From assembly GCA_043228905.1 (NCBI GenBank), contig JBHGNT010000003.1:2046001-2110000 (forward strand): 64,000 nucleotides of DNA. The letters are read 5' to 3'. The DNA is from Azolla caroliniana. Taxonomy: Eukaryota > Plantae > Polypodiophyta. Made by a program: the position numbers and the translations under genes. Positions 1,379-60,276 of the stretch are shown one piece after another (the first letter of the stretch is position 1; the number at the start of each line of letters is the position of its first letter). The notes beneath the pieces were generated by a model. It ran no database searches and was not told the origin of the DNA. It saw only the letters and a list, made by a program, of their open reading frames with translations.

Positions 1379-1463
1379 TGTTGGAAGCAATGTCGTCTGT
1401 GCGGAAGATCTTGAAGCACTCGATTCCTGTTTATTCCCTGTGTATGACAGAATGTAGGTCGTT

Positions 1464-1501
<38 letters not shown>

Positions 1502-1670
1502 AAAAGAGTTTCTTATTTCATAAAGCAACAATACAACAACCAACCCCACAAAGAGGTTACAAGGTCACTATATATAGTGACTGACTTAGGGCAACTACCC
1601 TTTATGCTAATTACAGAAATGGCCAAAACGGGATAATGTGAATACGTCCATTATACACATGTATTCGACA
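1379..1670 (-). repeat. 3' LTR of intact copia
   Basis: Direct repeat of 6454-6745, TG..CA ends, adjacent to PPT. Confidence 0.97.
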
Positions 1671-1863
1671 CTCCCCCGTAATGGGCGTATACATGGGTTA
1701 TCTGAGATTACAGGTATAAACTTAGGTTCTCGGACATATCAGCTTTGTTTGAGTCGGCAGGGTCCGAAGGCAGAAGACCGAACTGGTCGGGTCGGAACAG
1801 TCGAAGCCGATCATTAAGGAACTGATGTCGGTTGTCGGGAACCATTCTGCTCTGTGTCCGGCT

Positions 1864-5880: not shown

Positions 5881-6453
5881 ATTCGGTTTCAGTTGACGAA
5901 GCTCGGTTCGGAGTTGACTACGAACCTTGTTGGAGTGCAGCCGGTTGGCTCACCCGATATCGTTCTAGTCGGATTTGAACCCGAGTCGGTTCGGTTTCGG
6001 AACTTGCTCGAATTTACTCCGGTAACTTGAGGGACAGAACCGACTGGTCTTCCCGAATGTTGCCGAGTCGGAGTGAGCCCGGTTCGTTTCGGATATATAT
6101 GCCGAATACCAATTATTAAAACCGATTATCTGAACCGATTTTGCTTCGGTTGACTGCAGCGACGAGAGAGACGGATCCGACTGATCCTCCCGAATGTCGA
6201 TCAGCCAGATGAAGCATGAATTTGGGTTGTTGTCAGGGTTGCACAAGGGGATTTCACCTCGAGCGGTTACGATCACGGGGAGCGGAGTACAACCTGCTGG
6301 CTTACTCCAAACAAAGATGATCTAACGCGATGAGATGCAAACCTGGTTTTTCTTCTTCTTCTCTCTTCTTCGAATGACGCAGGGAACCGAATGCAGAGAC
6401 GACGGCCGACAGCGGATTGAAGAACCGACTACTGTGCAGGCTCTGATACCAGA

Positions 6454-6538
6454 TGTTGGAAGCAATGTCGTCTGTGCGGAAGATCTTGAAGCACTCGATT
6501 CCTGTTTATTCCCTGTGTATGACAGAATGTAGGTCGTT

Positions 6539-6576
<38 letters not shown>

Positions 6577-6745
6577 AAAAGAGTTTCTTATTTCATAAAG
6601 CAACAATACAACAACCAACCCCACAAAGAGGTTACAAGGTCACTATATATAGTGACTGACTTAGGGCAACTACCCTTTATGCTAATTACAGAAATGGCCA
6701 AAACGGGATAATGTGAATACGTCCATTATACACATGTATTCGACA
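6454..6745 (-). repeat. 5' LTR of intact copia
   Basis: Direct repeat of 1379-1670, adjacent to tRNA-iMet PBS. Confidence 0.97.
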
Positions 6746-6950: not shown

Positions 6951-7016
6951 GGATTTTTAGAGAGGGCTACCAAGGCGTGGGGCCGCGATAGTCCGGACAC
7001 CCCGGAAAAACCCCAC
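6951..7016 (+). promoter_or_regulatory. Candidate -1 programmed ribosomal frameshift signal (gypsy A)
   Basis: G GAT TTT TAG ends the gag-pro frame. A 6-nt spacer is followed by stem GGGCTA/TAGTCC. Loop GTGGGG is complementary to CCCCAC at 7011-7016. The -1 frame is open downstream. Confidence 0.75.
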
Positions 7017-24467: not shown

Positions 24468-27400
24468 ACAGACTCTAAGTCTATCCATAGGTAGGTTCTT
24501 CGTGAGCATGTCGGATCCATTGTTATCCGTGTGGATCTTCACAAGTGTAAACTCTCCTTCTTCGACTTTCTCCCGCAACCAATGATACCTTCTCTATATG
24601 TGCTTGGTCCAAGAGTGATATGCAGCATTATTGGCAAGATGTATGGCACTCTGGCTGTCATAGTGAAGCAATTTGCTTCATCCCTAGCTCGTTGAGAAAA
24701 TTTCTCATCCGGATAAGCTCTTTGCCAGCCTCTACCATTGCCATATACTCTGCCTCTATAGTCAACAAGGCTACAGACTTCTGCAGTCGTGATTGCCACA
24801 ACACTGCTCCCCCTCCATAGGTCATCACGTACCCCGACGTGGATCGGCTTGAGTCTACATCTCCCGACATGTCCGAGTCGGTAAACCTTCTAGCACAGGT
24901 TTTCCGACACCATACCCTAGGCACACCCCTGAGGTGCCTTTTAAGTACTTGAGTATCCACTTCACCATTGCCTAGTGTTCCCTTCATGGATTACTCATAT
25001 ATTGGTTTACTGCTCCCACAACAAATGCTATGTCTGGTCTCGTACAGACCATAGCATACATTAGACTGCCGACGACCGAGGCATATGGTACCTTCCTCAT
25101 CTCGGCCTTCTCCTTCTCCCCTTTCGGGCACTGCTTCACATTGAACCTGCAATTTGTCGGCAACACCGAGCCGACCGGCTTTATGTTCGACATGTTGAAC
25201 CTTTTTAGGATCTTCGTCACATGCTTTTGTTGTGACAACCATAGCACCTTTTGAGTTCTGTCTCGAACTATGTGCATTCCTAAGATCTGTTTAGCCGGTC
25301 CAAGGTATTTCATGGCAAATGACCTACCTAGAGCTTTCTTCAAGCTTCCGATCTTCCATGTGTCTTGACCAACTATCCACATGTCATCAACATATAACAA
25401 GAAAATCAAGAAGTCTCCTTCTTCGTACCTTTTGACAAACACACAGTGATCGACTTGTGTTTTTTGGAACCGTTGTTCCATCATGAAGGACTCGAACTTC
25501 TTGTACCATTGGTGTGGAGCTTGTTTTAGACCGTACAAGCTTTTCTTCAGTCGACACACCAGGTTCTCTTTCCCTTTTTCCTCAAAGCTTTCGGGTTGGT
25601 GCATGTAGATTTCTTCTTCTAGCTCCCCGTGCAAGAATGTGGTTTTGACATCCAAATGTTCAATCTCCAGGTCCATACTGGCCGCTATACTCAGAACAAT
25701 TCGAATGGATGTCATCTTCACGACTGGTGCGAATATTTCGTCAAAGTCGACACCCTTTTTCTGTTGAAAACCCTTCACCACTATGCGGGCTTTATACCTG
25801 GGCTCACTGTTGGCTTCTCTAGTTTTCACCTTGTAGACCCACTTATTCCTGAGTACTCTCTTACCTTTCGGCAGCTTTACCAGGTCATAGGTGTAATTCT
25901 CGTGCAAGGATTCCATCTCATCTTGCATCGCACTCATCCATTTCTCTCTGTGCTAGTCGGCAATGGATTCTTCATAGCACTCCGGTTCACCTTCATCAGT
26001 CAGGAGGATGTATTGACTGGTATATGTTGTTGGTGCTTTCCTTTCTATAAATGGGTATCTCCTTCCACTCGTTGTTGGCTCTCTTTCGGATGTCTCTTCC
26101 AACTCTTATCTCCGTTCGAGTTCCTACACGTCAATCGGCATCTCCATGTTGGACGACTCCAACTCACTCTTCAATTGACCTTAGCAGCTCTGCCAACTCT
26201 GACTCATAGTCGGTCGGTCTCTCCCAGTCTACTGACTCAGATTCGGCTATGCTGACTGGTCGTCTCCGAACAGCCGACGTTGTCAGTTCACTTGACCTTA
26301 GATCGACGATAGTTGGGGTTGACTAGGGAGTCGTATCCTACTTCTGTTGCTTCCAGTCTTCAATTGTCTTATCTTCAAGAAAGACTACATCCCGACTTCT
26401 CACAACCCTCTTGTCGACTAGGTTCCATAGCCTATAGCCGAACTCATCTTCCGAGTATCCCATGAATATGCATGCTTTCGACTTACTTTTGAGCTTTGAC
26501 CTCTGATCCTTCGATACATGCATATACCCCAAACCATAGTACGTAAAATTCGTGTTCGTCTACTATATCATTCGTTTTCGTACATTGGAAAACGAACACG
26601 AATGATATTCAAATATTCGTGTGTTTTTTTTTCCCTTTTTTTACCTTTTTTTTGGGTTTTTTACTTCTTTTCCCCCCTTTTCCTATACACATCAACGCTA
26701 CGCTCTGCTCTCCTCCCCTTTTCCCCCTTTTCCCCCTTTTCCTTGAACGATCTGTTGCTTGCATCGTGCACATTAGTCAATAGTGAGTCAGTGACCACAT
26801 CTTCTCCCGGCCATTATTTTCTGTAATTTTTCACTAATTTTTGTAATTTTTGTAATTTTTTCGTAATTTCTATAATTTCTCTATAATTTCTTTAATTTCT
26901 GTAATTTTGTTGTAATTTCTGTAATTGTTTCGTAATTTCTATAATTTTTATATTTTCTGTAATTTCTCTATAATTTCTGTAATTTCTGTAATTTTGTTGT
27001 AATTTCTGTTATTACGAAGGTAATGTTTTCTTTTGCAATTTTAAAATATTTACCTTATAGTAAATAATTTATCCAAAAGTATGGTATTTATCATTCTTCG
27101 AGGGTGTTTACCCTTCTCGAATGTACGAATGGTACGCATGGTTCATACTATGCCCGAAACATTCGAACACCCTCAGGTGTTGGTAGGAGACATCCTTCCC
27201 TGTTCACACTCTCTGTGGGACATCACCCTGTAATGGTACTTAGGGAGACATGTTGATAAGATAAACAATTGTGTACATCGCCTTAGCCCAATAGGATTTC
27301 GGTAGTTTCGCATGAGAGGCATGCTCCTTAGCCTCTCCATGATTGTTCAATTCATCCTCTCTGCAAGCCCATTCAACTCTGAGGTGTTTGGCACTGTGTA

Positions 27401-34114: not shown

Positions 34115-37100
34115 GCGTTGCATGGGGAATTCCGGCCACTTGGAGAAAGGAGTCGAAGAGCGTGGGAGCAGGGGTGTGCACAGATGCACACAAAGTTGTC
34201 TTTATGTACAAATAAGTGTAAATAACATAGGACTAGTAAGTACTACGGAGTACGATTTTGATGGGTACTTTAATGTCCCACACACATAGAGAAGAATAAA
34301 AGTGATAGATAGGAGGAACTCGAGGAGGGAATCAAGGACGGAAAAACGGTTGTAGTAATAACTTGATGTAATGGTCTCTCTCTCCTTGAGCTATAAAAGC
34401 AGGGAGAAACGACTAAGAACGAATCCACGTTCTAGAGAACAAAGTGTTGTCTGACGGAGCTTTGCAGACTTTTGTTCTCTGTTTCGGTTTCTGGTTGTGC
34501 TGCGAAGCCTCCGTTTCATGCTAGTAGCCCATGTGCTCCTAATCGGAGGATCGCTAGCATCAACATGTGTGTATGTGAGGAGTTAATAGCGTTGTTGCCG
34601 ATAGAGTCCGGCTGTAATTCTTTCCCCGATGATTAATAGATTATTTTGTTGTCTCCTTGTTCTCTGTTTTTTCTGTTTCTACCGTATTCTTGTCACCATC
34701 CCTTCCTGATTGTGTGTGCGAGCCGTGGGCTCATTGTACATAGTCCGGTGCTACTCCGGGACCGGTAAAGCATGCCGCACTCGTGCGCTCACCATAAGGC
34801 ATCCGGAAACCGGTTCGGATCTGATACTTGTCTAAACCGCACTCTAGTGAATTTATCTGAGGATTGAACTGGGTATAACCCTTTTCCCTTGCCGGTTCTG
34901 GGACGACGCTTCAGAGACAATCACTCGGACACCTATCCGGATAATCCGTCTTCCATCTAGGGCTCCTTGGTCCGAGATCCCCGTGGTCCCGCTCATTCCA
35001 ACACATCCACGCGGAAGTCCGCGACATCATTGGTGAACCCGACATGAAGTTGGGGCAGAAAAGGAGTTCGAAATGTGAGGAAGTGGACTCGTTGAAGCAA
35101 TGGCGGTGGCAGTTGATGTAATGGCGGGCGCAGCTCCAGAGGAGGTGACGAAGATGGTGTGCGATCTCCAGATTGCGCAAGCCCGAAGCGATGGCGGAGG
35201 AAAGTCACGTGACCGAAGGCCTCCGAGTGACCAACAATGCATGTGGTGCGATGCCGTCGGCCACATCCGAAGAGAGTGCACTGATTTCATCGAAGCCCTC
35301 AAGAACAATGTTGTGTACCTCTAGAATGAACAGGTACACACGTGTGGCACGCAAAGGCCCCTTGAGGTGAACATAGAATGAGGCGACATGAAGAGGATAA
35401 TGTAGGAAGCTGCGGCTTGGAATGCCGAGGCCATTCACTACTCCGTGTCGGCGGGGATCCGAGTAGGCAGAGAGAAGGGCAATGTATACGAAAGCAATGT
35501 TGATTTTGGTCGCTCGTACTAGAAGGCATGTCGGGGGTGAGGCTACAGAAGGAAGAGGCGGACCACGCGGAGAAACGGGTCTAGGAGGGCACCGGATGGA
35601 ACGATCTGGTTGAAGAGAAAACTGGCTTCGTAGAAACTATGTGCCAAAACTACGAGGTTCGGGTCAAGGACAAATGAGCCGGAAAGGACGAAGGGGATGG
35701 TTCCTTGAGCCGTTATGAGACCCGGAGTGGGCCGAAAAAGAATGACGGAGGCCCAACCAGCTCACAGGGGAAGGCGAAGATCAAGCTTCTGGCTGAGCTC
35801 AGAGATAGAGATGACAACGGATCTGCAGAAGGTCCTGGAAGAGCGGATCCTCGACAACAAGGTGGAGCTCTCGTTACGAGAGGTGTTGGGGATCGCAAAG
35901 AAGGAATTCCATGATTCCATCGTGGACCTGGTGAAAAGGAAGCAACTCTCATTGGAGCCGGAGTTGGAGAAGCCGGTGGAGGTAAAGTCGGACCACATCA
36001 AAGGGGTGACGATGGAGTAAGAAGTTCCAGATAGTCACTTCCTGAAGCTACGCTGGGCAAGAGAGACAATAGAGACCCCGGTCTGGATTGGGGATGTGAA
36101 GGAGTCGATAATAGCTCTGATCGACCACGGATCGAAGATAAACCTGATGTCGATGGACTTCTATAAGAAGGGTACTATGAATACAAAGCACGGGTGGAAG
36201 ATACACACGGCGATCCGAGCCACAAAGCTACATGCAGCGTGCCCGAAAGTCTGAGTAAAGGTCGGCGATGTCGAGATCGACCAACACTTCTTCGTGCAAG
36301 AGACATCCTCCCATCCCGTGATTCTCGGCGAACCTTACATTACAGCGGCCCGAATGTCGTGTGAATCTTGACACACTATGTAAAAAAATAATAATAATGA
36401 AATAATTATTATAGATTAGATTAGTAGCTTACTATAGAAAGATGGATATACTCAAGAGCTTCAAAATGTTTTTTACTATATACAAAATGGAGAAATACAT
36501 ATCAAGTTATGTGAAAATAAAGTTTGAGAAGATAGGGAAATTAGAACTATGCAAAATCGGAACCGGAACCGGCAAACAAACCGGAACCGGTCGGTATGCA
36601 AACCGAAACCGGCCGGTAAGCAAAACTAGAACCGGAACCGGAACCGTCCGGCAAGCAAAACCGGAAACTGGCCGGTAAGCAAAACCGAAACCGCAACCGG
36701 CAAGCAAAAAGGAACCGGCCGGCGAGGGATTCGGCGATCGGGCGGAACCGGTGTCGGGGTTGCTACGCCCTTGCGTGCAGAAAGGAGGAGGGACCACGAG
36801 GGTCTTGGACCGAAGAGCAAGAGAGAGCGGAGTAAGAGAGAGACCCGATTACACAGAACCGAAGATTGCACAGGGACACGGCCCAACAAACAGAGATCAC
36901 AAATAAACGCCGACGCAGATGGACGCAACAACGAAAGATATGTACTTATGAATGCAAGAAAATAACAGACTAAAGTATTACAACCCACGGCGGGGCACGG
37001 AATAGATACTAACGAAAACGAACAGGGCGGCGAACAGATGCCGACCCCTGTATGTCGCGACGCACAGAAAGGGAAAACAGGTCGGAGGTGCTGCAGGACG

Positions 37101-37517
37101 CACTCGGGGCGTTCCACGGAACAGCGCAAGCCTCCTCGAAACCTGCACAGGTACGCGATGGAGCAGAGGACAGAGAAAGCAGGAGTGAGAGAGGAGCTCC
37201 GAAATCGGTTCGGCAGCACTTTGTCCTCTCCGCGCGAGATATCCCACTTCTATTCTTCCTCTTTCTTTTATATCCCATCAAGAGGCCGTTTGGCATTAAC
37301 TGCATACCAACCGAATCTACCCACCTAGGATCCTCGTATGTACCTACTTCGCCCTTAGGTACTTCTTGGCGCGTGTGTGCGTGTAGAGCCGTTTCCCCAC
37401 GCCTTGTTCCTCCGATTTCTCTTGTGGGCGGTTTTCTTCACGACATCCGCCCCCACCTAACCGCGCATCCACCGGCATGCGCCAAATTAAGTTGGCACGG
37501 AGAAAACCGGCCCGCCT

Positions 37518-40500
37518 TTACTCTTCGCCTGCCGGCCCTCCCTCGGCCTCGGATCGGTCGTCGCTGCTGTCCAGGAGAATCGGGTCGGGTTCGTCGTCGT
37601 GCCGCTTCTTGAAAGCTTTGATCCTCTTCCCGGCCACGGGTATCGCTATTCTCGTACCGTCGAGTTCCGCCAGATGATACGTCCCGTTTTCGTTGGCGCT
37701 CTGTACCGTGTACGGCCCGAACCATCTCCGTGCGAACTTCCGCGTTGATCGGTGCTGGTTGTCGAGGCTGCTGTCGTAGACGAGCACCCAGTCACCTTGT
37801 TCGATCTTCTTCGGTCGGAGTCGGTGCGTTCGGTCGAACCTGGCCTTGTTCTTTATCCTCGGCACTCGGATCCTTTCTGCAGCCGTCTCCACGTCCTCCG
37901 GTCTCCGTTCGAGTTGTCGTATACGCGCTGCCAACAAGTCCTCCCGGCTCATCTCGTCCCTCCAGTCGACCGTCGCCCATGAGGAGATTGTTTGTTCCAC
38001 CGGCATGATCGGCTTCTGGCCGAACATGAGCTCTGTCGGCATGTACCCGGTTACCGAACTGTGCGTAGTCCGGTCGGCCCACAAAGCATAAGGTAGAAGT
38101 CGCGGCCAGTTACCGACTTGGCCCCCGCATGCCCGAACCAGCGCTTTAACGATCGGCCCGTGTCCGCGCTCCACCTTTCCATTCGCCTCCGGGTTGTACG
38201 CAGTGGTGAGCGAGAGTTTGACTCCCAGCCGATCGAACAGCTCCGCGGCTTCCTCGGCGTCCAACTCCCCCCGGTCAGCCACGATCTTCCCGACGCACCC
38301 GTACCGGCATATCACGTCCTCGATCAGGAACCGACACACGGCCGCGGTCGTCTTGTTCTGAAGGGCTCGGCCTTCCACCTGGTTCGTCAGGTCTTCCCGC
38401 GCTAGGACCAGATACCGCATCTGTCCTACCCCCATCGGCATCGTCACTAGATCTACCATCCATTTGAAGTGGATAGTCGGAGGGTACGTAGGGCGAAGCC
38501 CATCCCGGTGTCGGACTATCGAGTGCATCTGACAACTCTCGCAAGTCGACACGAACCGATGCACGTCCCGGTACAATCCCGGCCACCAGTACTTCCCCTT
38601 CAGCTTCTCAAATGTCGCCCACGTTCCACGGTGTCCAGCCCAAGGGCTGTCGTGGTAGGCCGTCAGCAGCTCCTCCTGTTCTTCCTTCATCGCCACCACC
38701 CGGAGCGGAGCGCCGTCCCTCTTCTTCGGGTGCTTCCATAGGTAGCCATCCCGGAGAAAGAATCGATATGCTTTCTTCCGGATCCGGTTGGCCTCGTCCT
38801 TCGTCCATGACGCATCAGGCGTCATTGTCTTCAAAAACCCGCCGATCTGCAGCCACTCCCCGTCGTACTTGCTCGCGTCGAACTCGTTAAGCGCCGGAGT
38901 GCTCATCCCGTCGGTCGTTATGTATGCCGCCTCGAAGAAATCCACGCTGACTTCTTCGTCTTCCGAAACCATGCCGTCCTCGTCGTCGAACCTCGCCCTC
39001 GAAAGCATGTCGGCCATGGCGTTGTCTTTCCCGGAAATGTGTCGTATTTCCGGGTCCAGGGACTTGATGTACGCTATCCACCTGAGCATCGCCAGGTCCG
39101 GAGTCGCGCATCCGGAAACCATACCGAGAATCGGCAGGCAATCCGTCTCGATGATCACTGCTGTCCCTATCAGGTAGTCTTTGTCGGCCTTAACCGCCGA
39201 AACAATACCCTAGAGTTCGCGTTTAACCTGGGCGTATCCTCGCTGCCGTTCACTGAGGACTTTCGCGCCGAATCGGATCGGAAACCGATTGCCGTCCTCG
39301 TCTTCCTGGTTCACGACCCATCCGATCCCGGTCGGACTGGTATCCACCGTTATGAATACCGGGGTACCCTTCCCGTATACCGCCTTCCGGAGTGCCGGTG
39401 CCGCTGCAAGGGCCTCTTTCAGCTTCCGGACCGATTCCGCGTGCTCGTCTAGCCATTCGAACCTTCGCCCCTTTTTCAGCAACCCGTACAGTGGCTCCGC
39501 GACGTGTGCGTAATGCGGGATCCATATGTGGTAGAACGCGCATGCCCCCAGGAATCTCCGTACTTCCGTGACCGAGCTGCAGTCGGGCTTCATCGCGGAG
39601 ACGGCTTCTATCTTTGCCGGAGACGGTTTCCGGCCATATGGTCCACATAGATGTCCGACCACCATGATTTCCGACTGCCCGAATGCTGACTTCTCCCCCG
39701 AGAAGGTGAGCCTCGCATCCTCTAGCCTTTGTAGCACCTTCTCGCAGTCGTCGATGTGCGTTACCACGAATCGCCGGCATCCGTCCGGCCCGATCGTCTC
39801 GTCCTTTTCTTCCACCGGGCATCCCTTGATCGGGATGTCGTCCAGAAACGGCATGGTGACGTCCGGGATACAGTCCCTCAGAACCTTGTTCATCGCATTC
39901 ACCATGTGGGCCACCGAGTTGGTCCCTCCTTGCGGCAGTGTACACATCCGAACTAGGCCGAGGGGAGTTCGCATCGTCGTAATGTCTCTGCTCTCCACGG
40001 CTAGCTGGAACTGGTCGTACCCTGAGTATAGATCCCCGACCGAGTAAATTGACCTTCCGGCGAAGGCCTCCGCGAACTCGTCTATGGTCGGTCCGATCCC
40101 TGCGTTCCGAATGGTCACTCGATTGACCGGCTGCAGGTCCTGGATGAAGCGCAACGAACCGTTTTTCTTCGGTACGGTAAACCATCGATTCGAATATGGG
40201 GCGCTCGACGGCTCGAGAATTCCCATATCAACTTTCTGCCTCAGCAGCTCCATCAACTTCGGGATGTGAGCTCTCGGAACCGGGATTGGCTTGAGATTCC
40301 ATGGTACATGCGGTACCGTGAATATCACCATCGGCTCCACGATCGTCGGGTCAACGCATCCGATTTCCTCCGGCGAGAATGCGAAGGCTTTCCCGTGCCT
40401 TCCGAGCATTCTCCGAAACCGGTCTTCCTCCGCCGGCAGTAGGAACCCGCCCCCACCGATTTTGAGCTCTCGGAGCGTCTCGTCGGTGAAGGTGTGTCCT

Positions 40501-41009
40501 ATGCAGGCCGGATCTCGTAGACTAGGGTCCGATGCAACCCCTTTGATTCTCGTCGCGCTGTCCTCCGGTAAGGGTGCCGCGACTGGCCTTACCTTCCGGT
40601 CCACAGTCTTGTACTTGGTGCTTACGTGGGCCGTCCGAACTGACTCGAGCCCTCGACCGAAGTCCGCGATGACTTCGTACATCTCCTCGGAACACACCGG
40701 TATCGTCCGGTCTTCGTTAAGGCCTTCTTCGACTACCTTTCCCAGCATTCCCAAGGTGTCGTCGAATGAGACCGCCTCCACGGCTCCGTTGATTTCCTCG
40801 TCCGGGCCGAGAACTCCGCACGCTCGAAGTCTCCCTTCCACCTTTCTCTTCTCTCGGCCGCCGATGCCGACTATCGCACATGCTCCGCTGTCGGAGAGCA
40901 AAAATTCCCTACCTACGGTACAAGGTTTCTTCGGTTTTATCGTACAGGTGTGAGGTTTTCCCGGGGTGTCCGGACTGTCGCGGCCCCACGCCTTGGCAGT
41001 CCTCTCTAA
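37518..41009 (-). pseudogene. pol (RT-RH-INT) of C in the -1 frame, with a single TGG>TAG stop at 39210-39212
   Basis: ORFs 39210-40901 and 37518-39158 share one frame, which is open up to the slippery site. RT FLDD, RNase H TVDTS/ETDC, INT HHCC, D-D-E and GPY. No chromodomain. Confidence 0.9.
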
Positions 41010-42202
41010 AAATCCTCTCGGTTTTCGGAACCGAGGGAATCGCGGTTACGTTCGTGGTTCGGCCTTACCGTCAGAAACTGGACCGAATGGCGCTCGTCTT
41101 GGCTTTTGACCCTCGCGTAGGCCGAACCATTGTCCAGCACTTTGGTCTCCATTCGCGCCGCCGTGATGTACGGCTCTCCTAGAATGACCGGATGCGAAGA
41201 CGTCTCCTGCACGAAGAAGTGCTGGTCTATCTCGACGTCGCCAATCTTGACTCGCACATTCGGACAGGCCCCGTGCAGTTCCTCGGTGGCGCGCGTTGCT
41301 GCCCTTATTTTCCACCCGTGCTTGGTGTTGATCGGCCATTTGCCCTTCTTGTAGAAGTCCATGGACATCAAATTGATCTCCGATCCGTGGTCCACCAAAG
41401 CTATCACCGGTTCCCGGACATCGCCGATCTTCACCGGGGTTTCCGTGGTCGCTCGGGCCCAGTGTGGTCTCGAATAGTGGCTTTCCGCCCACTCGTCTCC
41501 CAGCGCCATGTCGTCTAGGTGCGTCGTCCGCACTTCCACCGGTCTTTCCGGTTCTGTCTCCGTCGACAGCCTCTTCCGTTTCACCAAGTCCACGATGGAG
41601 TCGTGGAACTCCTTCTTGGCGATTCCCAGCACCTCTCGTAACGACAGCTCCACCTTGCTGTCGAGGATCCGTTCCTCCAGGACCTTCCGTAAGTCCGTGG
41701 TCCTTTCTATCTCCGTCCCCAGACGGTACCCGCCCTTCTGGGGTTTATCTTGCGTACCGGCCCCGCCGGCTTCGTCCCGTCGTGGCCCGGACCGGGTCTC
41801 GTATCGTTGTGAGGGCCCGGTCGTCCCGGGTCTCCCCACCCGCTTCTCTTCTACCAGAGCCTCGTAGTTCTGGCAAGCAGCTTCCACGAAGCCCGTCCTT
41901 TCCTCGACCGGGTCGCTCCACCCGGTCATCTCCCGTACCCGTTTCTCCGCACGGTCCGATTCTTCCCTCTTCATCCTCGTATCGGCAAGGCCTTCCAGCA
42001 CCGTCGGCCAGAATCCGGCTTTGCTTTCCCTCCGGGCCTCGCCGCCCCCGACTCGAATGCCGGCCGACGCCGAGTAGTGGACGGTTTCCGCGTGTCGGGC
42101 CGCCGCCTCTTCCATCACCCTTTTCATACCGCCTTTTCCGTCGTTTCGGCTCAGGACCCTTCGGGTGTCGCTGGCATGCACCCGTCCTTCCCACAGGTAC
42201 AC
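41006..42202 (-). CDS. gag C-terminus plus aspartic protease of C
   Basis: ALVDHGSEIN active site and VILGEPY flap/C-terminal motif. Ends at G GAT TTT TAG. Confidence 0.85.
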   Translation of the reverse strand: MYLWEGRVHASDTRRVLSRNDGKGGMKRVMEEAAARHAETVHYSASAGIRVGGGEARRESKAGFWPTVLEGLADTRMKREESDRAEKRVREMTGWSDPVEERTGFVEAACQNYEALVEEKRVGRPGTTGPSQRYETRSGPRRDEAGGAGTQDKPQKGGYRLGTEIERTTDLRKVLEERILDSKVELSLREVLGIAKKEFHDSIVDLVKRKRLSTETEPERPVEVRTTHLDDMALGDEWAESHYSRPHWARATTETPVKIGDVREPVIALVDHGSEINLMSMDFYKKGKWPINTKHGWKIRAATRATEELHGACPNVRVKIGDVEIDQHFFVQETSSHPVILGEPYITAARMETKVLDNGSAYARVKSQDERHSVQFLTVRPNHERNRDSLGSENREDF

Positions 42203-42213
42203 TACCCTGTTCC

Positions 42214-42888
42214 TCAGCGCCTCCGCGAGCCCGACCCGGTCGCCCCGTTATCCGCCCATTCTCGCCGTTTGTCGAAACGGCCACAGGCCTTCCTGACAGC
42301 CGCCCAGTCGGTAGTGAGCCCGTCTTCGGTCTCCAGCAAGAAGCCCACTTGCTCCCGATCCCGCTCGTCGACCGACTTGACAAACAGCAAGACCCGGCTC
42401 GTGTCCAGGATGGTTCGGTCGAGCGCCGAAAGGCGCGCAAAGTTTTCCTCGAACTCCCGGAGGAGCGCCGACGCGTTTCTTCCCTTCCCCGGGGACTCCA
42501 CCCATTCCATGAACCTTCGCTTCGAAAGCCGGAGCGCGTCGTCCAGCCCGTATTTCTCTAGGAGCCGACCTTCGAACTCCTCCCAGGTACGGCTCTCCGT
42601 CCGCACCTCGAGCACCTCCGCATGGATGCTCGGCATCGCTACTCGGGGAAATCCGGCAAGACGCCTTTCTTCCGGAATGTCCCGCATCAGCATCTCTGCA
42701 CCGTAGGACGCCAAATACTTCGTGGCATCCTTCCCATCGAACCGGCCGATCGTGCCGACGACCGCCTCAATGGCTCTGTCGAGGGCACCGGTGCTCTCGC
42801 GCGCGTTTACAATCCGATCCACGGCCGAAGCCATGGCCTCTGCGAGATCCGACCCCCTCATTTCCTGCTCTTCTGTCGCCTCTTTCAC
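42214..42888 (-). pseudogene. gag N-terminal (capsid-like) part of C, frameshifted by an internal deletion
   Basis: GRFDGKDATKYL domain homologous to the gags of I, H and G. The zinc-knuckle segment present in A and D is missing. First ATG 42861. Confidence 0.8.
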
Positions 42889-42901
42889 GTCGGGTTCACC
42901 A
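42884..42901 (-). promoter_or_regulatory. Primer binding site complementary to the tRNA-Trp 3' end
   Basis: TGGTGAACCCGACGTGAA is the reverse complement of UUCACGUCGGGUUCACCA (plant tRNA-Trp 3' end, as recalled). Identical or variant PBS at 17429, 35031, 55553, 58722 and 63522. Confidence 0.8.
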
Positions 42902-45900
42902 AGATGTCGGGGTTGCTACGCCCTTGCGTGCAGAAAGGAGGAGGGACCACGAGGGTCTTGGACCGAAGAGCAAGAGAGAGCGGAGTAAGAGAGAGACCCG
43001 ATTACACAGAACCGAAGATTGCACAGGGACACGGCCCAACAAACAGAGATCACAAATAAACGCCGACGCAGATGGACGCAACAACGAAAGATATGTACTT
43101 ATGAATGCAAGAAAATAACAGACTAAAGTATTACAACCCACGGCGGGGCACGGAATAGATACTAACGAAAACGAACAGGGCGGCGAACAGATGCCGACCC
43201 CTGTATGTCGCGACGCACAGAAAGGGAAAACAGGTCGGAGGTGCTGCAGGACGCACTCGGGGCGTTCCACGGAACAGCGCAAGCCTCCTCGAAACCTGCA
43301 CAGGTACGCGATGGAGCAGAGGACAGAGAAAGCAGGAGTGAGAGAGGAGCTCCGAAATCGGTTCGGCAGCACTTTGTCCTCTCCGCGCGAGATATCCCAC
43401 TTCTATTCTTCCTCTTTCTTTTATATCCCGTCAAGAGGCCGTTTGGCATTAACTGCATACCAACCGAATCTACCCACCTAGGATCCTCGTATGTACCTAC
43501 TTCGCCCTTAGGTACTTCTTGGCGCGTGTGTGCGTGTAGAGCCGTTTCCCCACGCCTTGTTCCTCCGATTTCTCTTGTGGGCGGTTTTCTTCACGACACC
43601 GGCTACCAGACGAGGTTGGATGTGGACGGACGGAAGATGGGATCATGCAACAAACTAAAGTAAAGTGAAGAGAACTAAAGTAAAGGCCATGTGGACGCAA
43701 GCAACTAAAGTTGGAGTGCATGCAAAAAGTAAAGGTCATGTGGATGGTCACATGCAACTAAAAGAAAAAGCCATGCAACTGAAAATAGATGCAACTAAAA
43801 GAAAAAGCTAGGCAACTAAAAGTAGAGGCCATGCAACTAAAAGAAAAAGCTAGGCAACTAAAAGTAGAGGCCATGCAACTAAAAGAAAAAGCTAGGCAAC
43901 TAAAATTAGAGGCCATGCAACAAAAAGTGGAAAGGCTATGATCAAGGGAGAACTCTATATATATTCCATTTTTTTCTTACACTCAGACTCTTCATATTAT
44001 CTTAATTTTTTTCCTTTTCTTTGGGAGCTCTCTTATCTTATCGAAGCCAATAACCCTAATCTTCCCTACGGAAGCTATCTCTCAAGTAAACCATAATTTC
44101 CATACAGAAGCAATCTCTCAAAATCCAAAATTCCTTGTCAAAGCCATATCACTCAAGAATCATAATCTCTTATTTCCTTTAATCTATTATTCTAGTAATC
44201 TCCTTAAGATAAAACTTTTGTAATCCCAATCTTGGGATTGATTGTAATTTTTCTTTCTACTTGTTAATGAAATTTGTTAATATTTCTCATTTCGGTTAAT
44301 TCTTAGTACATAAATACACGAATTTGATATCCTCTAGTCAAAGGCCCTGGGGTCTTGTCTCAACGTTCATGTATCCTTGTCATATTTCTGCGACACCGAA
44401 TGGAGACAAAGGTGCTGGATAATGGTTCAGCCTACGCGCAGGTGAAAAGTTAGGATGGTTGGCACTCCATTCAGTTCTTAACAGTCTGGTCGAACCACGA
44501 CCTGAATTGGGATTCCCGCAGCGGCGAAAGCCGAGAGGATTTTTAGAAAGGACTATCAAGGCCTGGGGCCGTGATAGTCTGGACAACTGGAAGAAACCCC
44601 AAATCTAGAAAATTTTGGTTCTCTGAAAGCGGAGGTTGTATCGTGGCCAACATTGGTGGCTAGGAAAGGAAGCGGGTCAAAGAGCGCTTTAAGGCATGCG
44701 GAGCCTTAGGACCAGACGAAGGGATTAGTGACGTTGTGGAGGCGGTCTCATTCGACGACACCCTCGGGGAGGTCGAGAAGGTGATCGAAGAAGGCCTAAG
44801 CATTCCGGTCAATTCTATCGAGATGTATGAAGTCATCGAGGAATTCGGGAGGATGGTCGGGTCGGATCAGATGGCCGATTAGATACTAAGTACAAGATTG
44901 TGTACCGGAAGGTGAGGCCAGTCACGGCTCCCTTGCCAGAGGACAACTGGGAGCGAATGAAAGGGGTTGCGACCGACCCGAGTTTGCGAGATCCGGCCAG
45001 CATAGGACACCAGTTCACCGACGAGATGCTACAGGAGCTGAAGGTCTGTGGAGGTGGCTTCCTACTGCCGGCAGAGGACCCATTTCGGAGGATGCTCGAA
45101 AGGCACGCGAAAGCCTTCGCGTTCTCGTCAGGGGAGATCGGGTGCATCGACTTGGCAATCGTAGAACCAATGGTGATCTTCACTGTGCCACATGTGCTGT
45201 GGAGTCTCAAACCAATTCCAATACCGAGGGCTTACATCCCAGAGTTGATGCAGCTGCTCAAGCAGAAGGTGGAGATGGGGATTCTCGAACCGTTGAGTGC
45301 CGCTTATTCGAATTGGTGGTTTACGATGTCGAAGAAGAACAGCATGTTGTGCTTTATAGAGGACCTGCAACCCATCAACAAAGTGACAATCCGGAATGCA
45401 GGGGTCAGACCGACCATCAATGAGTTTGTTGAGGCCTTCGCCGGAAGGTCAATCTACTCGGTTGGGGATCTATACTCCGGGTACGACCAGTTCCAGCTAC
45501 CCGTGGAAAGTAGGGACATCACGACGATGTGAACACCTTTCGGCCTAGTTTGGATGTGTACCCTACCGCAAGGAGGGACCAATTCGGTGGCACACATGGT
45601 GAATGCAATGAACAAAGTGTTGAGGGACTGCATCCCGGGCATCGCCATGCCGTTTTTGGATGACATCCCGATCAAGGGAGGTCCGGAGGACGCAAAAGAA
45701 GAGTCGATCGGAGCAGACAGATGTCGGAGGTTTGTCGCGGACCATATCTCCGACTGCGAGAAGAACTGCAGAGGCTTGAGGGCGCTCGGCTTACCTTCCC
45801 CAGGGAGAAGTTGGCATTCGAACAATCGGAGATCATGGTGGTCAGTCACCTATGCGAACCACACGGCCGGAAACCATCTCCGGCAAAGGTAGAGGCTATC

Positions 45901-49892: not shown

Positions 49893-50959
49893 ATGGCTAC
49901 CATCTAAGGCTGGACAAGAATGGAAAGTACATAACTTTAATTATGGATGGTGGTAGATCTTAAATGTAGTTGAAATTCTAAATCGCCACTTGTAGCGAAG
50001 GTCTTCATCTGGAGAGTTTTGATTGGGGTTTGTCTTGGGATTAGCTCTAAAGCACATGGACTAGCAACAGGCAATTGTTTCTTTTTCATTATTCAACCGG
50101 AAGATAGTACTCATCATTCACAATGCGTGAAGTGTGATCATCCACATTTTTTCCCATGTCATGAATATATATATCTAGAGAGACAAAGAGTTTAGATGGA
50201 TGTAGCTTAGTTGGTAAGGTTGTCCAACGGAGACTAGAAGGTCATGTATATGGTCATAGGTGTTGAGAAACAAAAAGCAACATTTTGATCCTTGATCTAG
50301 ATACTTAGTTTGGCATATTTTGTTTGGCCAACCCAAATGCGTCTCCAATAGCATTTAAAATGTCGATAATACAATAGAAAATCAAAGTGCAAAATTACAA
50401 ATTTTCAAAGCATGAGTGGTCAATTGAAGAAAGAAATTGCAGAAGATCTTATTGTACTAATCAATTAACTTTACAACTTATACAAATATAGCAAATAAAT
50501 GAATTGGATAGATATGTATATAATCAAGGACAAGGTGTTATACCTTAGGCTGCTAATGGTGTAGGGTTCCTTTATACAACACACTTTTTTTTTTTCATAA
50601 AAATTACCCTCCATTAGTATTAAGATTAAAGTAGCCAAAGGCAAGATACAAAATAATCCAACATTACAATGAATAATGTGTAGCCAATCTTTCTAGATAA
50701 AGATAAAGGCAAGATACAAGATAATATCGGTGAACTTCTCCCTAAGTAATATTGTTGCCCTACCAGCGTCCATATCACCAAGTAATGTTGATGCCATGCC
50801 AAAGCCCCTAGCATCAATTCCATCGTATTCAACATGTAGTGATATATCTTCTTTCACAATGATTCCTTGATCGCTACTACATGTAAGATTTCATCATATC
50901 CAAATGATCCAAATGAGCCTACCATATGAAAATACTAGTTCTCTACTCAATCCACTCCC

Positions 50960-52160
50960 CTCAGACCCTCATGAAAATTTGCTTCTGCCTCTGCCACCAT
51001 CTTCTCTCATCGTTGTATAAACTAAAAACAAATAAATGTGCTTCAAAATATTTCCACATCAGCCATCTCTCCATTTTCCATGAAATTCTTGTATAGACAA
51101 CAAAGAAAAAATTAGTTGTCCTCATCCACTCATGACATTTTGCTTCAATCCTCGACAACATCCTCACTCATCCTTTCAAAAATAAATCAGCTTCCTTTTC
51201 CACAACATCCATCTTGCCAGTTATTGCCCACGTCGTGAATCTCTCTATTTTCAGCAATTTCCTATACATACACAAAACAGAATTAATCCACTCTCCTCAC
51301 CCTCATAAAACCTTGCTTCTACCTCCGCCACCATCTTCACTCATCATTCTGAAAACTGAAAGTAAATAAGACTGCTTCAAAAACTTCCACATCAACTATC
51401 TCTCCATTTTGCATCAAGATCCTGTTGCCATTCATCACCCAAGTCCTGTACCTACAAAAAACACAGAATGAATCCACTCTCCTGAAACCCTCATGAAACC
51501 TTGCTTCTACCTCCACCACCATCTTCACTCATCCTTCCAAAATTAAATCAGCTTCATTTTCCACTACAAGCATCTTGCCATTCATCTCCCGAGTCCTGTA
51601 CCTACAAAAACTAGAATGAATCCATTCTCCTCAAACCCACATGAAACCTTGCTTCGGGCTCCGCCACCATCTTCACTCATCCTTTCAAAATAAATCAGCT
51701 TCGTTTTCCACTACAACCATCCTGTCATTCATCACCCGAGTTCTGTACCTACAAAAAGAAGACCAGAATGAATCCACTCTCCTCAAAACCTTAAGAAACC
51801 TTGCTTCAGCCTCCGCCACCATCTTCACTCGTCATTCTAAAAACTGAAAATAAATAAGTTTGCTTCAAAAAAAACTTCCACATCAAAACAGCTCGCCATT
51901 TTGCATCAAAATCCTCTCCACTTTCAACACTTTCCTATATATATACACTCCTTAGACCATCATGAAAATTTGTATTTGCCTCCATCCCCATCTTCATTCA
52001 TCGTTCTAAAAGTTATAATACCTAAATCTGCTTCAAAATAATTCCACAACAACCCTCTCGTCATTTTCACCAAGTTCCTGTATAGACAACAAACAAAATG
52101 AATGAACTGTCCTCATGAAATTTTGCTTCAACCCTCAACAACATCCTCACTCATCTTTGC
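50960..52160. repeat. Degenerate tandem array, about 8 units of ~150-190 bp
   Basis: Core CATGAAACCTTGCTTC..CCTCCGCCACCATCTTCACTCATC recurs near 50968, 51130, 51301, 51490, 51639, 51790, 51960 and 52112. Confidence 0.8.
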
Positions 52161-54410: not shown

Positions 54411-55609
54411 AATGTACCTTTGATATACAACACACATTTGCACACAAATATGTAGCTTTAAGGCTTTATTTCATGAATGGATGGTAACTCGAAAAGAGCA
54501 AGGTGATCCACAATGGGGGGGGTGGGGGGGGTTATTGTAATGGAATACATCAATGATATGGTTGGTATCTATACTTCCTTTATGTACCATACAAGTTTTC
54601 ATAACATGTGGGTTATTTATTAAGAGGTTCAAGGATTTACTTAGAAACGTTTCTTGCATTCTTTTAAATGTTATAATAATGTTAGAAGTTTAATAATGAA
54701 TTACGGAATTGAGAGTGCACACGTGACTGTGAAACAAAATCTTGCTAGGATTGGGTTTGTTCAAAGATGTGTGGAAAGCTTTTTTGGATGTAGTCAAAGT
54801 TAGAACGTTGTCGTGAAGATTTTCGGCAACGGCGTGAAAATTATGTGCAACAAACGAAATCAAGAAGGTGCAATGTGCACTTGAGAAAGGGGTGAAGGCC
54901 ACACGCATATGCTAGCATGTTGTAAATAGTACTGAAATGAGAATCGTAAAAGAAAAGCTAGATATAAAGTTAAACATGTGCACGTGTGATGTGCGCTAAA
55001 TTGTAAATATAAACAATGAGACTAAAGCCTAGTAACATTTAAGTTCATACATAGGGGTGGAAGCCAGGCTTGAACATTGCACCTCCAATGAAGGAGACAA
55101 ATTAACTTACCACTAAAGCCACTACTAAGTGCTTTAGAATTTGTATATTTTCTTTTCATATTCTGTATTTTGTAGGAAGCCAACATATAGAAACCGTGGG
55201 CACAAAACCATGGTTTTAGCCCATGGTTTTAGCCCGTCGGTTTAGCCCATGGTTTTTGCATGGAGAGACCTATAAAAGCCTATAGTGCGGCTTGTGTAAG
55301 GAGGCAATTGATGTAAGTAAAAAAGAAACTTTTAATCAAAGATTAGAGTTATCCTAATGGTGATGTATCTTGTCTCGTAAAACTAAAGTCAAGGGTTCAA
55401 TATCTATCTCAATCTCTATCTCTCTTCATCCATGTATCTATCTTCAATACTTTCTCGCTTACGCTGCTAAAAACATCAAATCCTTCCGGTCCAGGACGCC
55501 GGTTGTCCCGCTTCATTTCACGAACACGCGGGGATTAACTCCACATCTTACTTGGTGAACCTGATGTGAAAAAGCAATAGGAAGGATCAAGACAAGGATC
55601 GACGAATAC

Positions 55610-57832
55610 TTGGAGATGGCATCCTCAAGAAATCAATTGGGAGAGTTCGAAAGAATGATGATAATCTTCGAACAAATGATGAGATCTCGGGACAACAATG
55701 CGAGCATGGAGAAGGCCGTCAACCGTGTCATGGAGATCGAGGGTCAATTTGATGGAAAGAACATTACGAAGTTCCTGGATGTATACAAAAGGGAGATAAA
55801 TCAAAGGGACGTGTCTGAAGCACGTTAAATCTCGAGTTTCAAGTGAGTTGTCGTCAACAACGTCTAAAGACGGGTCATCGAGCTTCAAGAAAGGAAGACA
55901 ACATGGTCAAAGTTCGAAAGAGAAATATTAGTGGAGTTCGCGACGGAAGACTTGACGAGAATGACTCGACATGCCTTGATGAAGTGGATAGAAAAGAAGA
56001 ATAAGAGGATGAGCGCTTCGAGGGTGTACGACGAGTTCGACCAAATGTTTCGTCGTCTCCCCACGACAGACCAAGTGTTGCTTGAGGAGGACAAGACTTT
56101 GTACTTCTTGAAAGCTGTAGACATGAAGGATAGACGAGAATTGGGGACTCTTCTTGAAGATAATACCCAAGCGAACGAGCTTGTGGTGGACTAGGTTACG
56201 GTGAATCGAGCATGCAACAAGATTGACAGGCGTTATCAATGGCTTGATGACATTGACTTGGTAAGGCCAAGCGTAGAAACATCAAGACCACCTAAAGAAG
56301 TGGAGCTGCCTAAACAAAGCAACCTACATGAAAAGAAGATTGATGATGACTCGAGGACGGAGAAGGCCACTTCGAGGGAGGATGAATGTTTCGGAATGCA
56401 CGTCGTGTTCGAAACATCGGATGATGAAGGAGCAAGCCTATTAATCGAAGCTTGCATCAATGGAGATAAACAGTACAAGGCTAGTGTAATTGAGGATCTA
56501 GCCGCTAAAGACGACATCGAGGAGGTGACTATCAACAAGACGACAAGCATCGACAACGGACATGGCCGGATTTTATCCACACATGCTCCAGAGACTTGGG
56601 CAGTTGCGTTCAAGAACCAACGTGAGACCCAAGAGATGGAAGGTGTCGGCGAGGAGCCGAAGGTCGAAACAAATACATGCCACGAAGAGAGAAGGATAAT
56701 CGAATCCTGTTCGATCAAGAGGGTCAATAGGTGCGACACCCATGCGATTGAAGAGATAGCCACGAAAAACGACATCAAGTCGGAGATAGCTATGGACGAG
56801 TCGATGACGGATGGTCATGTGGAGACTTTCCTAACACTTCATCTAGAGATTTGGGCAATTGCGTCTGGGAACAAAAATGAGACCCAAGAGACGGATGGTG
56901 GCGAAAAGGAAGAAAAGGACCAAGATAATACAGACAATGACGACGGCCGAATTTTGCCCTCATTGGTTCCAGAAACTTGGGCAGTTGCGTCCGAGAACCA
57001 ACAGAAGACCCGAGAGACGGAAGGTGGCAACAAGGGGGAGTTCCAATCTAATGTGAAACATGACATCAAAACAAAGGTGTCAAAGGCGATTGACCAAAGA
57101 CAAATGGAATCCTCCACACATGTTCTAGAGACTTGGGCAGTTTTGGTTCAAAGCCAACGTGAGACCCAAGAGACAAAAGGTGATGGCGGGGAAGCCAAGG
57201 TTCAAGCCAACACAAATAACGATGTCGACGCGTGGCCGACAAATACATATGGATCTCTCCACACTCGTTCTGGAGACTTTGCCATTAACCGATGTAAGAC
57301 CCAAGTGAAGGACAGTGACGAGGAGGAAGCAAGGGTCGAAGCTGATGTGTGGGGAAAAGAGGCCAAGCAAAGCACAACAAAAAAAGACGAGGGCCAGGTG
57401 GGTCAAGAAGATTTAAAGGGTATTTCTCAAGATATTGATGTTACATTCAACTTGAAGGTGGACACTATCAATGTTAAGATCAAGGAATCAATGGAGAACT
57501 CTGACATAAGAAGAAACCACAAAGATGGACAAAGTGGGAAACATGAAAAATGGTCACGTAAGGATCTCGACATGGGCATACACTTGAAGATACTACATGG
57601 GGTATTCAATGCCAATATTCAACTAATAACTTGTGGAGGAAGACAAAAAACAAAACTACATGATGGGTCAAAGTGCTTTGATGAAGGAGATGGTTGGAAC
57701 GAAGGTGGAACATGCATAAAGCGTAAACGGTTATTCTCGGAAGGAGAACAAGGGGCCATGACAACTGGTCATGGTAAATCAAAGAATGAGAGAATGATAT
57801 GGTGGATTGGGTGGCGACAATGGTTCGAGTGA
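55610..57832 (+). pseudogene. ~740-codon gag-like frame: capsid-like domain plus acidic repeat domain
   Basis: ORFs 55610, 55931 and 56201 are in one frame, broken only by in-frame stops. GQFDGKNITKFL resembles the C gag. ETWAV repeats follow. Confidence 0.8.
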
Positions 57833-58550
57833 AAGGAATAGATATGCTTGAAATGGAGGAATTGTAACGATCAACGTAGCCGAAATCTCACACTCTCTCT
57901 TCTTGGCACGTACTAGAGGACGTGCAGTTTGGTGGGGGTGGATGTCGTGAAGATTTTCGGGAACGATGGAAAAATTGGGTGCAACAAACGAAATCAAGAA
58001 GGTGCAATGTGCACGTGAGAAAGGGGTGAAGGCCACACGCATATGCTAGCATGTTGTAAATAGTACTGAAATGAGAATCGTAAAAGAAAAGGTAGATGTA
58101 AATTTAAACATGTGCACGTGTGATGTGCGCTCAATTGTAAATATAAAAAATGAGACTAAAGCCTAGTAACATTTAAGTGCATACATAGGGTTGAAAACAA
58201 GGCTTGAACCTTGTACCTTCAAGGAAGGAGACAAATTAACGTACCACTAAAGCCACTATTGAGTGCTGTAGAATTTGTATATTTTCTTTTCATATTCGAT
58301 ATTTTGTAGGAAGCAAACATATAGAAACCGTGGGCACAAAACCATGGTTTTAGCCCATGGTTTCAGACCATGGTTTTAGCCCGTGGGTTTAGCCTATGGT
58401 TTTTGCATGGAGAGAACTATAAAAGCCTATAGTGGGGCTTGTGTAAGGAGGCAAGTGATGTAAATAAAAAAGAAACTTTTAATCAAAGATTAGATTTATC
58501 CTAATGGTGATGTATTTGTAAAACTAAAGTGAAGGGTTCAATATCTATCT

Positions 58551-58596
<46 letters not shown>

Positions 58597-58742
58597 ATCC
58601 ATATCTCTATCTTCAATACTTTCTCCTTTACGCTGCTAAAAACATCAAATCCTTCTGGTCCAGGACCCCGATGGTCTTGCTGCATTTCGCGAACACGCGA
58701 GGATTTGCACAACATCTTACTTGGTGAACCCGATGTGAAGAA

Positions 58743-60276
58743 GTGGTAGGAAGGGTCAAGACAAGGATCGACGAATACTTGGAGATGGCATCCTCAAGCA
58801 ATCAAGCGGGAGAGTTCGAGAGAATGATGATAATCTTCGAACAAATGATGAGATCTCGGGACAACGATGCGAGTGTGGAGAAGGCCGTCAACCGTGTCGT
58901 GGAGATCGAGGGTCAATTTGATGGAAGGAACATTACGAAGTTCCTGGATGTATACAAAAGGGAGATGAATCAAAGGCACGTGTCTGAAGCACGTCAAATC
59001 TCGAGTTTCAAGTGAGTTGCCGCCAACAACGTCTAAAGACGAGTCATCGAGCTTGAAGAAAGGAAGACAACGTGGTCAAAGTTCGAAAGAGCAATATTAG
59101 CGGAGTTCGCGACGGAAGACTTGACGAGAATGACTCGACATGCCTTGATGAAGTGGATAGAAAAGAAGAATAAGAGCATGAGCGCTTCGAGGGTGTACGA
59201 CAAGTTCGACCAAATGTTTCGTAGTCTCCCTGCTACAAACCAAGTGCTGCTTGAGGAGGACAAGACTTTGTACTTCTTGAAAGCTGTAGACATGAAGGAT
59301 AGACGAGAATTGGGGACTCTTCTTGAAGATGATACCCAAGCAAACGGGCTTGTGGCGAACTGGGTTGCGATGAAGCGAGCATGCAACAAGATTGACATGC
59401 GTCATCAATGGCTTGATGACATTGACTTGGTAAGGCCAAGCGTAGAAACATCAAGACCACCTAAAGAAGTGGAGTTGCCTAAACAAAGCAACCTACATGA
59501 AAAGAAGATTGATGATGACTCGAGGATGGAGAAGGCCACTTCAAGGGAGGATGAATGTTTCAGAATGCAAGTCATGTTCGAAACATCGGATGATGAAGGG
59601 GCAAGCCTAATCGAAGCTTGCATCAATGGAGATAAAGAGTACGAGGCTAGTGTAATTGAGGATCTAGCCGCTAAAGACGATATCGAGGAGGTGACTATGA
59701 ACAAGACAACAAGCGTCGACAACGACCATGGCAAGATTTTGTCCACACATGCTCCAGAAACTTGGGCAGTCGTGTCCAAGAACCAACGTGACACCCAAGA
59801 GACCGAAGGTGTTAGCGAGGATCCGAAGGTCGAAACGAATACATGCCACAAAGAGAGAAGGATAATCGAAGCTTGTCAAAAAGGATGATGGAGTTTCTAA
59901 GACAAGGGAAAAGACGAAATGAAGCCCAACAAGCCGTCAAGAGGGTAGTCGAGCGAGTGAGCTATTTCAATGGCGCTGAAGTCCAAATTTTTCTAAAAGT
60001 CTACAATTCGGAGATGGATTCAAGAGGTGTGGACGAAGCTATGAGGCTGGAGTACTTTTGTCGGGTGGTGTCTCAACCGATCTTCAAAGATGTAAAAGAG
60101 CTTCTACAAGCTCATGATTCATGGGCGACTTTCGAGAAGGCTCTATTGGAGGAATATGGCTATGAGAGACTAAAGGGACGAGATCTACACAGCTTCGACC
60201 AATGGGTGACATCGGCGAAGACCCACCAAGGCGCGACACAAGCATTCGTAGACTTTGAGCGTCGTTTTTCTCAACT
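58743..60276 (+). pseudogene. Second copy of the H gag-like frame, running into a second capsid-like segment
   Basis: Near-duplicate of 55580-56710. From ~59885 it reads QQAVKRVVERVSYFNG.., homologous to the G gag. Confidence 0.78.

Follow-up and report, generated by a model that had tools for sequence, protein, structure and literature searches.

The 64,000-nucleotide (nt) stretch of Azolla caroliniana DNA analyzed here (the window) carries three copies, A, C and D, of one long terminal repeat (LTR) retrotransposon group. We examined the junction between their Gag-protease (Gag-PR) frame and the pol frame for reverse transcriptase (RT), RNase H (RH) and integrase (IN or INT). Element C has the following features:

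36752..43598, minus strand: element C, a Ty3/gypsy LTR retrotransposon of 6,847 bp, nested within the older copy D
43599..43602 (other copy 36748-36751), no strand: target-site duplication (TSD) CCGG, which fits NCGN
42905..43598, minus strand: 5' LTR, 694 bp, with TG...CA ends
42885..42901, minus strand: primer-binding site (PBS) TGGTGAACCCGACGTGA
42214..42861, minus strand: N-terminal part of gag, with the ATG at 42861
41006..42247, minus strand: C-terminal part of gag (DUF4100) and aspartic protease (LVDHGSEIN, Asp codon 41392-41390), ending in ENREDF and the stop
41009..41015, minus strand: putative slippery heptamer G_GAU_UUU
41003..41008, minus strand: 6-nt spacer containing the Gag-PR stop TAG (41008-41006)
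40972..41002, minus strand: predicted pseudoknot stem 1 (41002-40995 with 40979-40972)
40950..40989, minus strand: predicted pseudoknot stem 2 (GTGGGG 40989-40984 with CCTCAC 40955-40950)
39210..41015, minus strand: first part of pol in the -1 frame, with a linker of ~130 amino acids (aa), RT and the start of RNase H, up to an in-frame TAG (39212-39210)
37518..39209, minus strand: second part of pol, with the remaining RNase H and integrase
37446..37458, minus strand: polypurine tract (PPT) preceding the 3' LTR
36752..37445, minus strand: 3' LTR

Two TG...CA LTRs, a TSD, a PBS and a PPT are thus all present. The LTRs are identical at 693 of 694 positions, i.e., they differ by one mismatch. C is a young yet defective element, in which the gag frame is broken near 42200-42250, where sequence present in relatives is missing and poly(A) reads of a related organism have loose ends (42226-42228), and in which one in-frame stop interrupts pol. 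Pfam searches identified DUF4100 in the first open reading frame (ORF1) and RVT_1, RT_RNaseH, Integrase_H2C2 and rve, in that order, in the second (ORF2), giving the domain order GAG-PR-RT-RH-INT, while the Pfam and ORF scans of C showed no match to a chromodomain, an aRH or an extra ORF. Of the 80 loci described below, 32 share the first 14 nt of the PBS, which we take to match tRNA-Trp. tRNAs were not detected by ARAGORN in 60 of the 120 viral stretches that contain the PBS complement, no relative of the element turned up in the viral contigs searched, and the window had no match in Rfam.

In all three copies the Gag-PR frame ends in G GAT TTT TAG, as an earlier note on this DNA had stated, at 41015-41006 (minus strand) in C, 6951-6960 (plus strand) in A and 44537-44546 (plus strand) in D. 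The cassettes of the two other copies are located as follows:

6951..7016, plus strand: copy A, heptamer 6951-6957, TAG, stem 1 6964-6994, stem 2 6977-6982 with 7011-7016
44537..44601, plus strand: degenerate copy D, heptamer 44537-44543, TAG, stem 1 44550-44580, stem 2 44564-44568 with 44597-44601

The -1 frame, described in that note as open in A and C, is indeed open in both. In C it reads GFLERTAKAWGRDSPD and, starting at the heptamer, spans 601 codons that take in RT and reach into RNase H; in A it stays open for ~140 codons, and a break farther on displaces RT to a different frame. In D, whose LTRs are 79% alike and which is older than C, it closes after 21 codons, with a 35-nt gap. The stems and loop pairings quoted for the three copies were recovered, and GGACTG/CAGTCC in C is a genuine compensatory double change relative to the A-U pair of most relatives. 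GGAUUUU was correctly named as a slippery heptamer of umbraviruses and dianthoviruses, where G_GA is a known variant of X_XX (PMC5009743).

Comparison with related sequences makes it highly probable that the Gag-PR/pol junction of this Ty3/gypsy lineage, likely Phygy, is a -1 frameshift site, with G_GAU_UUU as the predicted slippery sequence and an H-type pseudoknot as its stimulator. The Asp and Phe tRNAs on GAU UUU would slip to GGA UUU, the A-site Phe tRNA re-pairing fully and the P-site Asp tRNA partly, while the ribosome would stall at the predicted pseudoknot, formed on the mRNA 6 nt downstream of the heptamer. The efficiency of slippage would be such that most ribosomes terminate, releasing Gag-PR in excess, and a minority make Gag-PR-RT-RH-IN. 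A stop codon adjacent to the heptamer may help slippage.

Intact relatives carry Gag and protease in a single ORF of ~700-890 aa. The C-terminus of ORF1 gave weak matches to aspartic-protease families in Pfam, and its AlphaFold model (mean pLDDT 65) matched the Ddi1, XMRV and HIV proteases in Foldseek with a best E value of 2.6e-6, indicating a retropepsin fold; searching the PDB by sequence, with the PR alignment as query, returned nothing at E<=0.1. The ORF1 stop therefore lies downstream of the protease domain. At the protease active site (41392-41384, minus strand), C has D-H-G in place of D-T/S-G, as do at least 90% of 27 aligned relatives.

Homologues of ORF1 were found in Physcomitrium, Adiantum and Riccia and in many metagenome and sequencing-run assemblies. 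From the 248 proteins examined, 80 fall short of the PR end and 168 reach it. The latter terminate as xDF (63), as [DG]F plus five residues (29), as xNF (6) or as VFx (2), while 34 continue and 34 have other endings, comprising fragments, degenerate copies and further variants. In 90 proteins, 12 different residues precede DF; all of them have a G-ending codon, and D, N, H, Y, F, C and I never occur there. Further ORF1 ends are xDYG, DFxDRQx and, in Riccia, VF plus five residues, each before the stop (P0297, P0303, P0337, P0169; P0227, P0231, P0276; P0376, P0406, P0407); the proteins alone suggest that these are additional variants of the slippery site.

At the nucleotide level, a metagenome search with the PR alignment yielded 157 loci, the best 80 of which were kept. 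The PR stop lies within the contig in 76 of these; 60 end in DF and a stop, and 59 of the 60 read exactly G GAT TTT followed by TAG, TAA or TGA, against a background usage of 0.29 for a wobble G, 0.62 for GAT and 0.43 for TTT. The conservation of the heptamer proposed in the earlier note therefore holds for the DF ends, but the heptamer is not invariant, as G_GGU_UUU, G_GUU_UUY and G_GAU_UUC also occur. In the 58 loci that include both the junction and the start of RT, pol is open in the -1 frame in 52, in the +1/-2 frame in two and broken in four. PR and RT in one frame, an arrangement contrary to that note, was found in none of the 58. An RT-RH-IN ORF of 1,020-1,282 codons begins at the heptamer in 25 loci. 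These 52 loci rule out chance or assembly error as the origin of the main cassette.

The closest stop in the pol frame is located a median of 6 codons (1-38) upstream of the heptamer, and conserved linker residues of this frame lie before its first AUG (codon 89 in C, codon 110 in L002 and L003). Since the frame is closed upstream and conserved residues precede the first AUG, pol requires entry at the junction. A separate translation of pol, by re-initiation or from a transcript of its own with an internal AUG, is accordingly very improbable: a Met near linker codons 100-112 is common but absent from L031 and L072, upstream of it lie conserved residues and a divergence biased to third positions (0.15/0.10/0.35 by codon position over codons 30-130), and an internal AUG leaves the heptamer unexplained.

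For comparison among families, 69 junctions were clustered at 90% identity into 40 clusters, and the 31 with a pol frame intact at the junction were kept. The stop directly adjoins the heptamer in 23 of these 31 families and not in the remaining 8, and the unshifted frame accordingly ends at once or at most five codons later. Stop-codon readthrough of the Retand or murine leukemia virus (MLV) type was rejected, as the frame one base on from pol, which is the Gag frame in 29 of the 31 families, contains 223 stops in 3,410 codons and the identity of the stop codon varies. Slippage of RNA polymerase or reverse transcriptase on the run of 4-6 U, as reported for the HIV U6A site (PMC5737442), could add a base and fuse the frames in some RNAs. 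We regard this as hardly credible, since it leaves both the fixed 6-nt distance to the pseudoknot and the conserved G_G unexplained; RNA reads at the site, at shallow depth, listed no indel at a threshold of 10%.

Both stems of the predicted structure covary, which supports an H-type pseudoknot. A MAFFT alignment of the 31 families has no gaps from the heptamer through the end of stem 1, so that this spacing is conserved, and RNAalifold returned 8 stem 1 pairs, 6 of them with double changes. Over 10 pairs of stem 1, 88.4% of the cells are paired, compared with 81.4+/-1.1% after shuffling and 23-46% after sliding; the value exceeds all 500 shuffles and all slid controls, which take no account of kinship. 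When the cassette is left out of the protein tree, at least 37 changes have to be placed on the 8 core pairs, yet 242 of 248 cells are paired, leaving 6 unpaired.

Because the variable loop 3 prevents MAFFT from aligning the 3' strand of stem 2, this stem was tested by comparing each sequence's own pairing with swapped pairings. Evaluated by stacking energies, the own loop and downstream strands of 16 clade representatives scored -13.7, compared with -10.6+/-0.56 for swapped strands (0 of 200,000 permutations), while a control window gave p = 0.60. At least eight clades show matched changes in stem 2, including GGGAC/GTCCC, ACAGGG/CCCTGT, ATGAGGGT/ACCCTCAT, CAAGG/CCTTG, GCGAGA/TCTCGC and AGGCGGGG/TCCCGCCT, with a constant geometry relative to the heptamer. 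A scan, also based on stacking energies, recovered the pseudoknot in 30 of the 33 sequences; 0 of 1,200 shuffles and 6 of ~1,190 other sites came up to the same level. Its dimensions are 8-12 bp for stem 1, 5-8 bp for stem 2 and 11-16 nt for loop 3. In the loop 3 of the window family (40972-40958, minus strand; 6993-7007, plus strand), a small CCGG hairpin is possible, which would compete with or add to stem 1.

A real -1 shift could nevertheless depend on stem 1 and the adjacent stop only, stem 2 being dispensable or serving in packaging or dimerization. The pairing of stem 2 is weak in four cases (C, L015, L049 and L073), and a nearby stop, such as the one in most families, matters at the umbravirus G_GAU_UUU site (PMC5009743). 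However, the matched changes in stem 2 and the families without an adjacent stop make this explanation improbable.

Several points weigh against a pseudoknot-stimulated -1 frameshift. G_GAU_UUU is a non-canonical heptamer with weak re-pairing in the P site. Host sampling is narrow, since 76 of the 80 loci bear contig names from one assembly series, and where a family is multicopy, contigs assembled from short reads may average out its variants. Nine of the 40 clusters were dropped, and since an intact pol frame was the condition for keeping a family, the zero stops in this frame of the 31 families are partly due to selection. The scan found no perfect-helix pseudoknot in L062, L068 and L072. 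Folding of single sequences by minimum free energy does not pick out the cassette in C or A, which are no more stable than their shuffled versions (z 0.50 and -0.72, respectively; z -3.0 in D), and stem 2 of C is among the weakest, with rank 23 of 31. The case is made by the relatives and not by the three copies in the window. Finally, when the 110 longer proteins were divided by source label, 14 of 37 eukaryotic gene models (Physcomitrium, Riccia, ab initio) joined PR to pol via predicted introns, in Physcomitrium often from KDFG, while 0 of 73 intron-unaware ORF calls ran on into RT.

These gene models would be in line with a spliced RNA from which the Gag-PR stop is removed, the structure having another role, and Ogre elements indeed combine the same split of GAG-PROT from RT-RH-INT with an intron (PMC6317226). 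However, the spliced models are predictions with many different acceptors, and the only GT common to all families near the PR end belongs to Val codons, with variable bases at +3 to +6. There is no non-coding spacer either, as pol is open from the heptamer and the ORFs overlap. Poly(A) reads from a related organism listed no splice joint, which is weak evidence given the shallow coverage of ~14x and 8x in the junction bin (208 and 135 reads). With overlapping ORFs, no conserved donor and no aRH match, the junction is not of the Ogre type, and splicing is an unlikely explanation. The frameshift signal explains the mis-splicing of these elements by gene callers, whose ab initio models bridge it with invented introns. 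At low depth, the poly(A) reads extend over the entire element in both orientations; between 39200 and 42900, their antisense-type coverage is greater over gag-PR than over pol.

The earlier note's proposal that Gag-PR is followed by RT-RH-INT through a -1 shift is thus supported by the two-ORF layout, the -1 register and the covariation, but one clade seemingly needs a -2 shift. L053 (2838-2910) and L061 (2500-2572) read CAG GTT TTT (G/T)AC TAG with a 5-nt spacer and the same pseudoknot fold, which is among the strongest in the set, and their pol ORFs of 1,154 and 1,101 codons lie in the +1/-2 frame. This register is known at contig level from two contigs with 6-8x coverage. Both loci have the family PBS and form one clade with a support of 99-100, being 80% alike in PR DNA. 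Since their pol differences concentrate at third codon positions (40% differ, compared with 12% of first and 7% of second positions), the two have long replicated under selection. Six proteins from separate contigs end in NNQVFD and two in NDQVFY, which confirms the end of ORF1 but not the frame of pol.

AG_GUU_UUU is the -2/-1 site of arteriviruses (PMC7618472, PMC6675879), and the mRNA-tension model favors -2 shifts with spacers 1-2 nt shorter than those of -1 shifts (PMC3458567). As this model predicts, L073, with G_GUU_UUC and a 6-nt spacer, has pol in the -1 frame. We therefore find it somewhat probable that the clade of L053 and L061 retuned the same pseudoknot from -1 to -2 by changing G_GAU_UUU to AG_GUU_UUU and the spacer from 6 to 5 nt, the distance to the stem after the slip remaining 7 nt. 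A +1 slip was considered and rejected: L061 would permit it with UUU_U, whereas L053 reads UUU_G, and a 3' pseudoknot at shortened spacing agrees better with -2. [quoted passage not shown] In contrast, the arterivirus site uses no RNA structure and needs a C-rich motif together with nsp1beta and PCBP proteins, whereas L053 and L061 have a covarying pseudoknot 5 nt downstream; on reading their sequences, the C-rich motif CCCANCUCC 10 nt downstream was absent. As natural cases of -2 shifts, one review lists those of phage Mu, of arteriviruses and of Trichomonas vaginalis virus 1 (PMC5009743). If the retuning is true, the clade would offer a natural example of eukaryotic ribosomes driven into a -2 frameshift by an RNA pseudoknot, and evolution would here have put the mRNA-tension model to the test (PMC3458567).

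Other features of the window include a Ty1/copia element at 1379-6745, inserted in the protease gene of copy A, which it splits. It looks intact and very recent, with a 1,361-codon ORF (1864-5949, minus strand) and identical 292-bp LTRs. The window also contains a degenerate tandem repeat of 150-190 nt at 50936-52015, a T-rich array of 9-11-nt repeats at 26800-27051 and a direct duplication with 3.1-kb spacing at 54809-59888.

The split itself, presented in the earlier note as unlike the usual layout, is not new, as Ogre with its intron and Retand with its stop codon are plant precedents (PMC6317226). Since a split between Gag-PR and RT is precedented in plants, the novelty lies in the frameshift signal at that junction. 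A review notes only +1 cases among those plant elements of a 2003 survey in which gag and pol have separate frames (PMC5009743). Our literature searches, whose coverage excluded most subscription papers, retrieved no description of this signal, and the accessible parts of PMC5580714, PMC12786077, PMC7466625, PMC11963269, PMC4139406 and PMC12481079 do not mention it. The proposed mechanism is known, but its setting, downstream of the protease and in a retrotransposon lineage of non-seed plants, is new. The Gag:Pol ratio of plant retrotransposons has so far mostly been explained by splicing or single ORFs; the junction described here gives a precise candidate -1 signal, conserved at the protein level in moss, liverwort and fern relatives, with an alpharetrovirus-like placement of the protease. 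Moreover, the same pseudoknot fold is available in ~30 natural variants, among them a candidate switch from -1 to -2 that makes the spacer-length model testable with natural sequences.

Judged from its sequence, the element is a non-chromovirus Ty3/gypsy element, likely of the Phygy lineage. In REXdb, Phygy denotes non-chromovirus Ty3/gypsy elements of Physcomitrium with a 4-bp NCGN duplication and a tRNA-Trp primer, and its ORF organization is given as 'ND' (PMC6317226). C resembles it in its NCGN TSD (CCGG, in one element), in the lack of a chromodomain, aRH or extra ORF match and in a coding region that fills the interior. At 6,847 bp, C falls below the Phygy range of 7,656-9,968 bp but has a gap in gag, and size is of little value for classification according to the REXdb authors (PMC6317226). 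Among homologues with a name, proteins of Physcomitrium patens come nearest, at 50-70% across the PR region. While REXdb described the clade from Physcomitrium only, Phygy-like Gag-PR homologues also occur in Adiantum and Riccia.

In alpharetroviruses, the protease is in frame with Gag. Rous sarcoma virus, a member of this group, shifts by -1 into pol at the end of gag with the help of a pseudoknot (PMC5009743), as predicted here, but our element is a retrotransposon without env, uses G_GAU_UUU and has a compact local H-type fold with a loop 3 of ~14 nt. Among plant elements of the Tat clade, Ogre has a spliced spacer of ~274 bp and an aRH, whereas our elements combine a -1 overlap of the ORFs with a putative slippery site and a predicted pseudoknot and have no aRH match; Retand has a single in-frame stop and an aRH, in contrast to the -1 overlap. 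In Tcn1 and Selgy, the frames overlap before the protease (PMC6317226). Dianthoviruses and umbraviruses present the same G_GAU_UUU, often near a stop, to plant ribosomes (PMC5009743); their bulged stem-loop pairs with a sequence ~4 kb away, whereas the partner strand in the elements described here lies 11-16 nt past stem 1.
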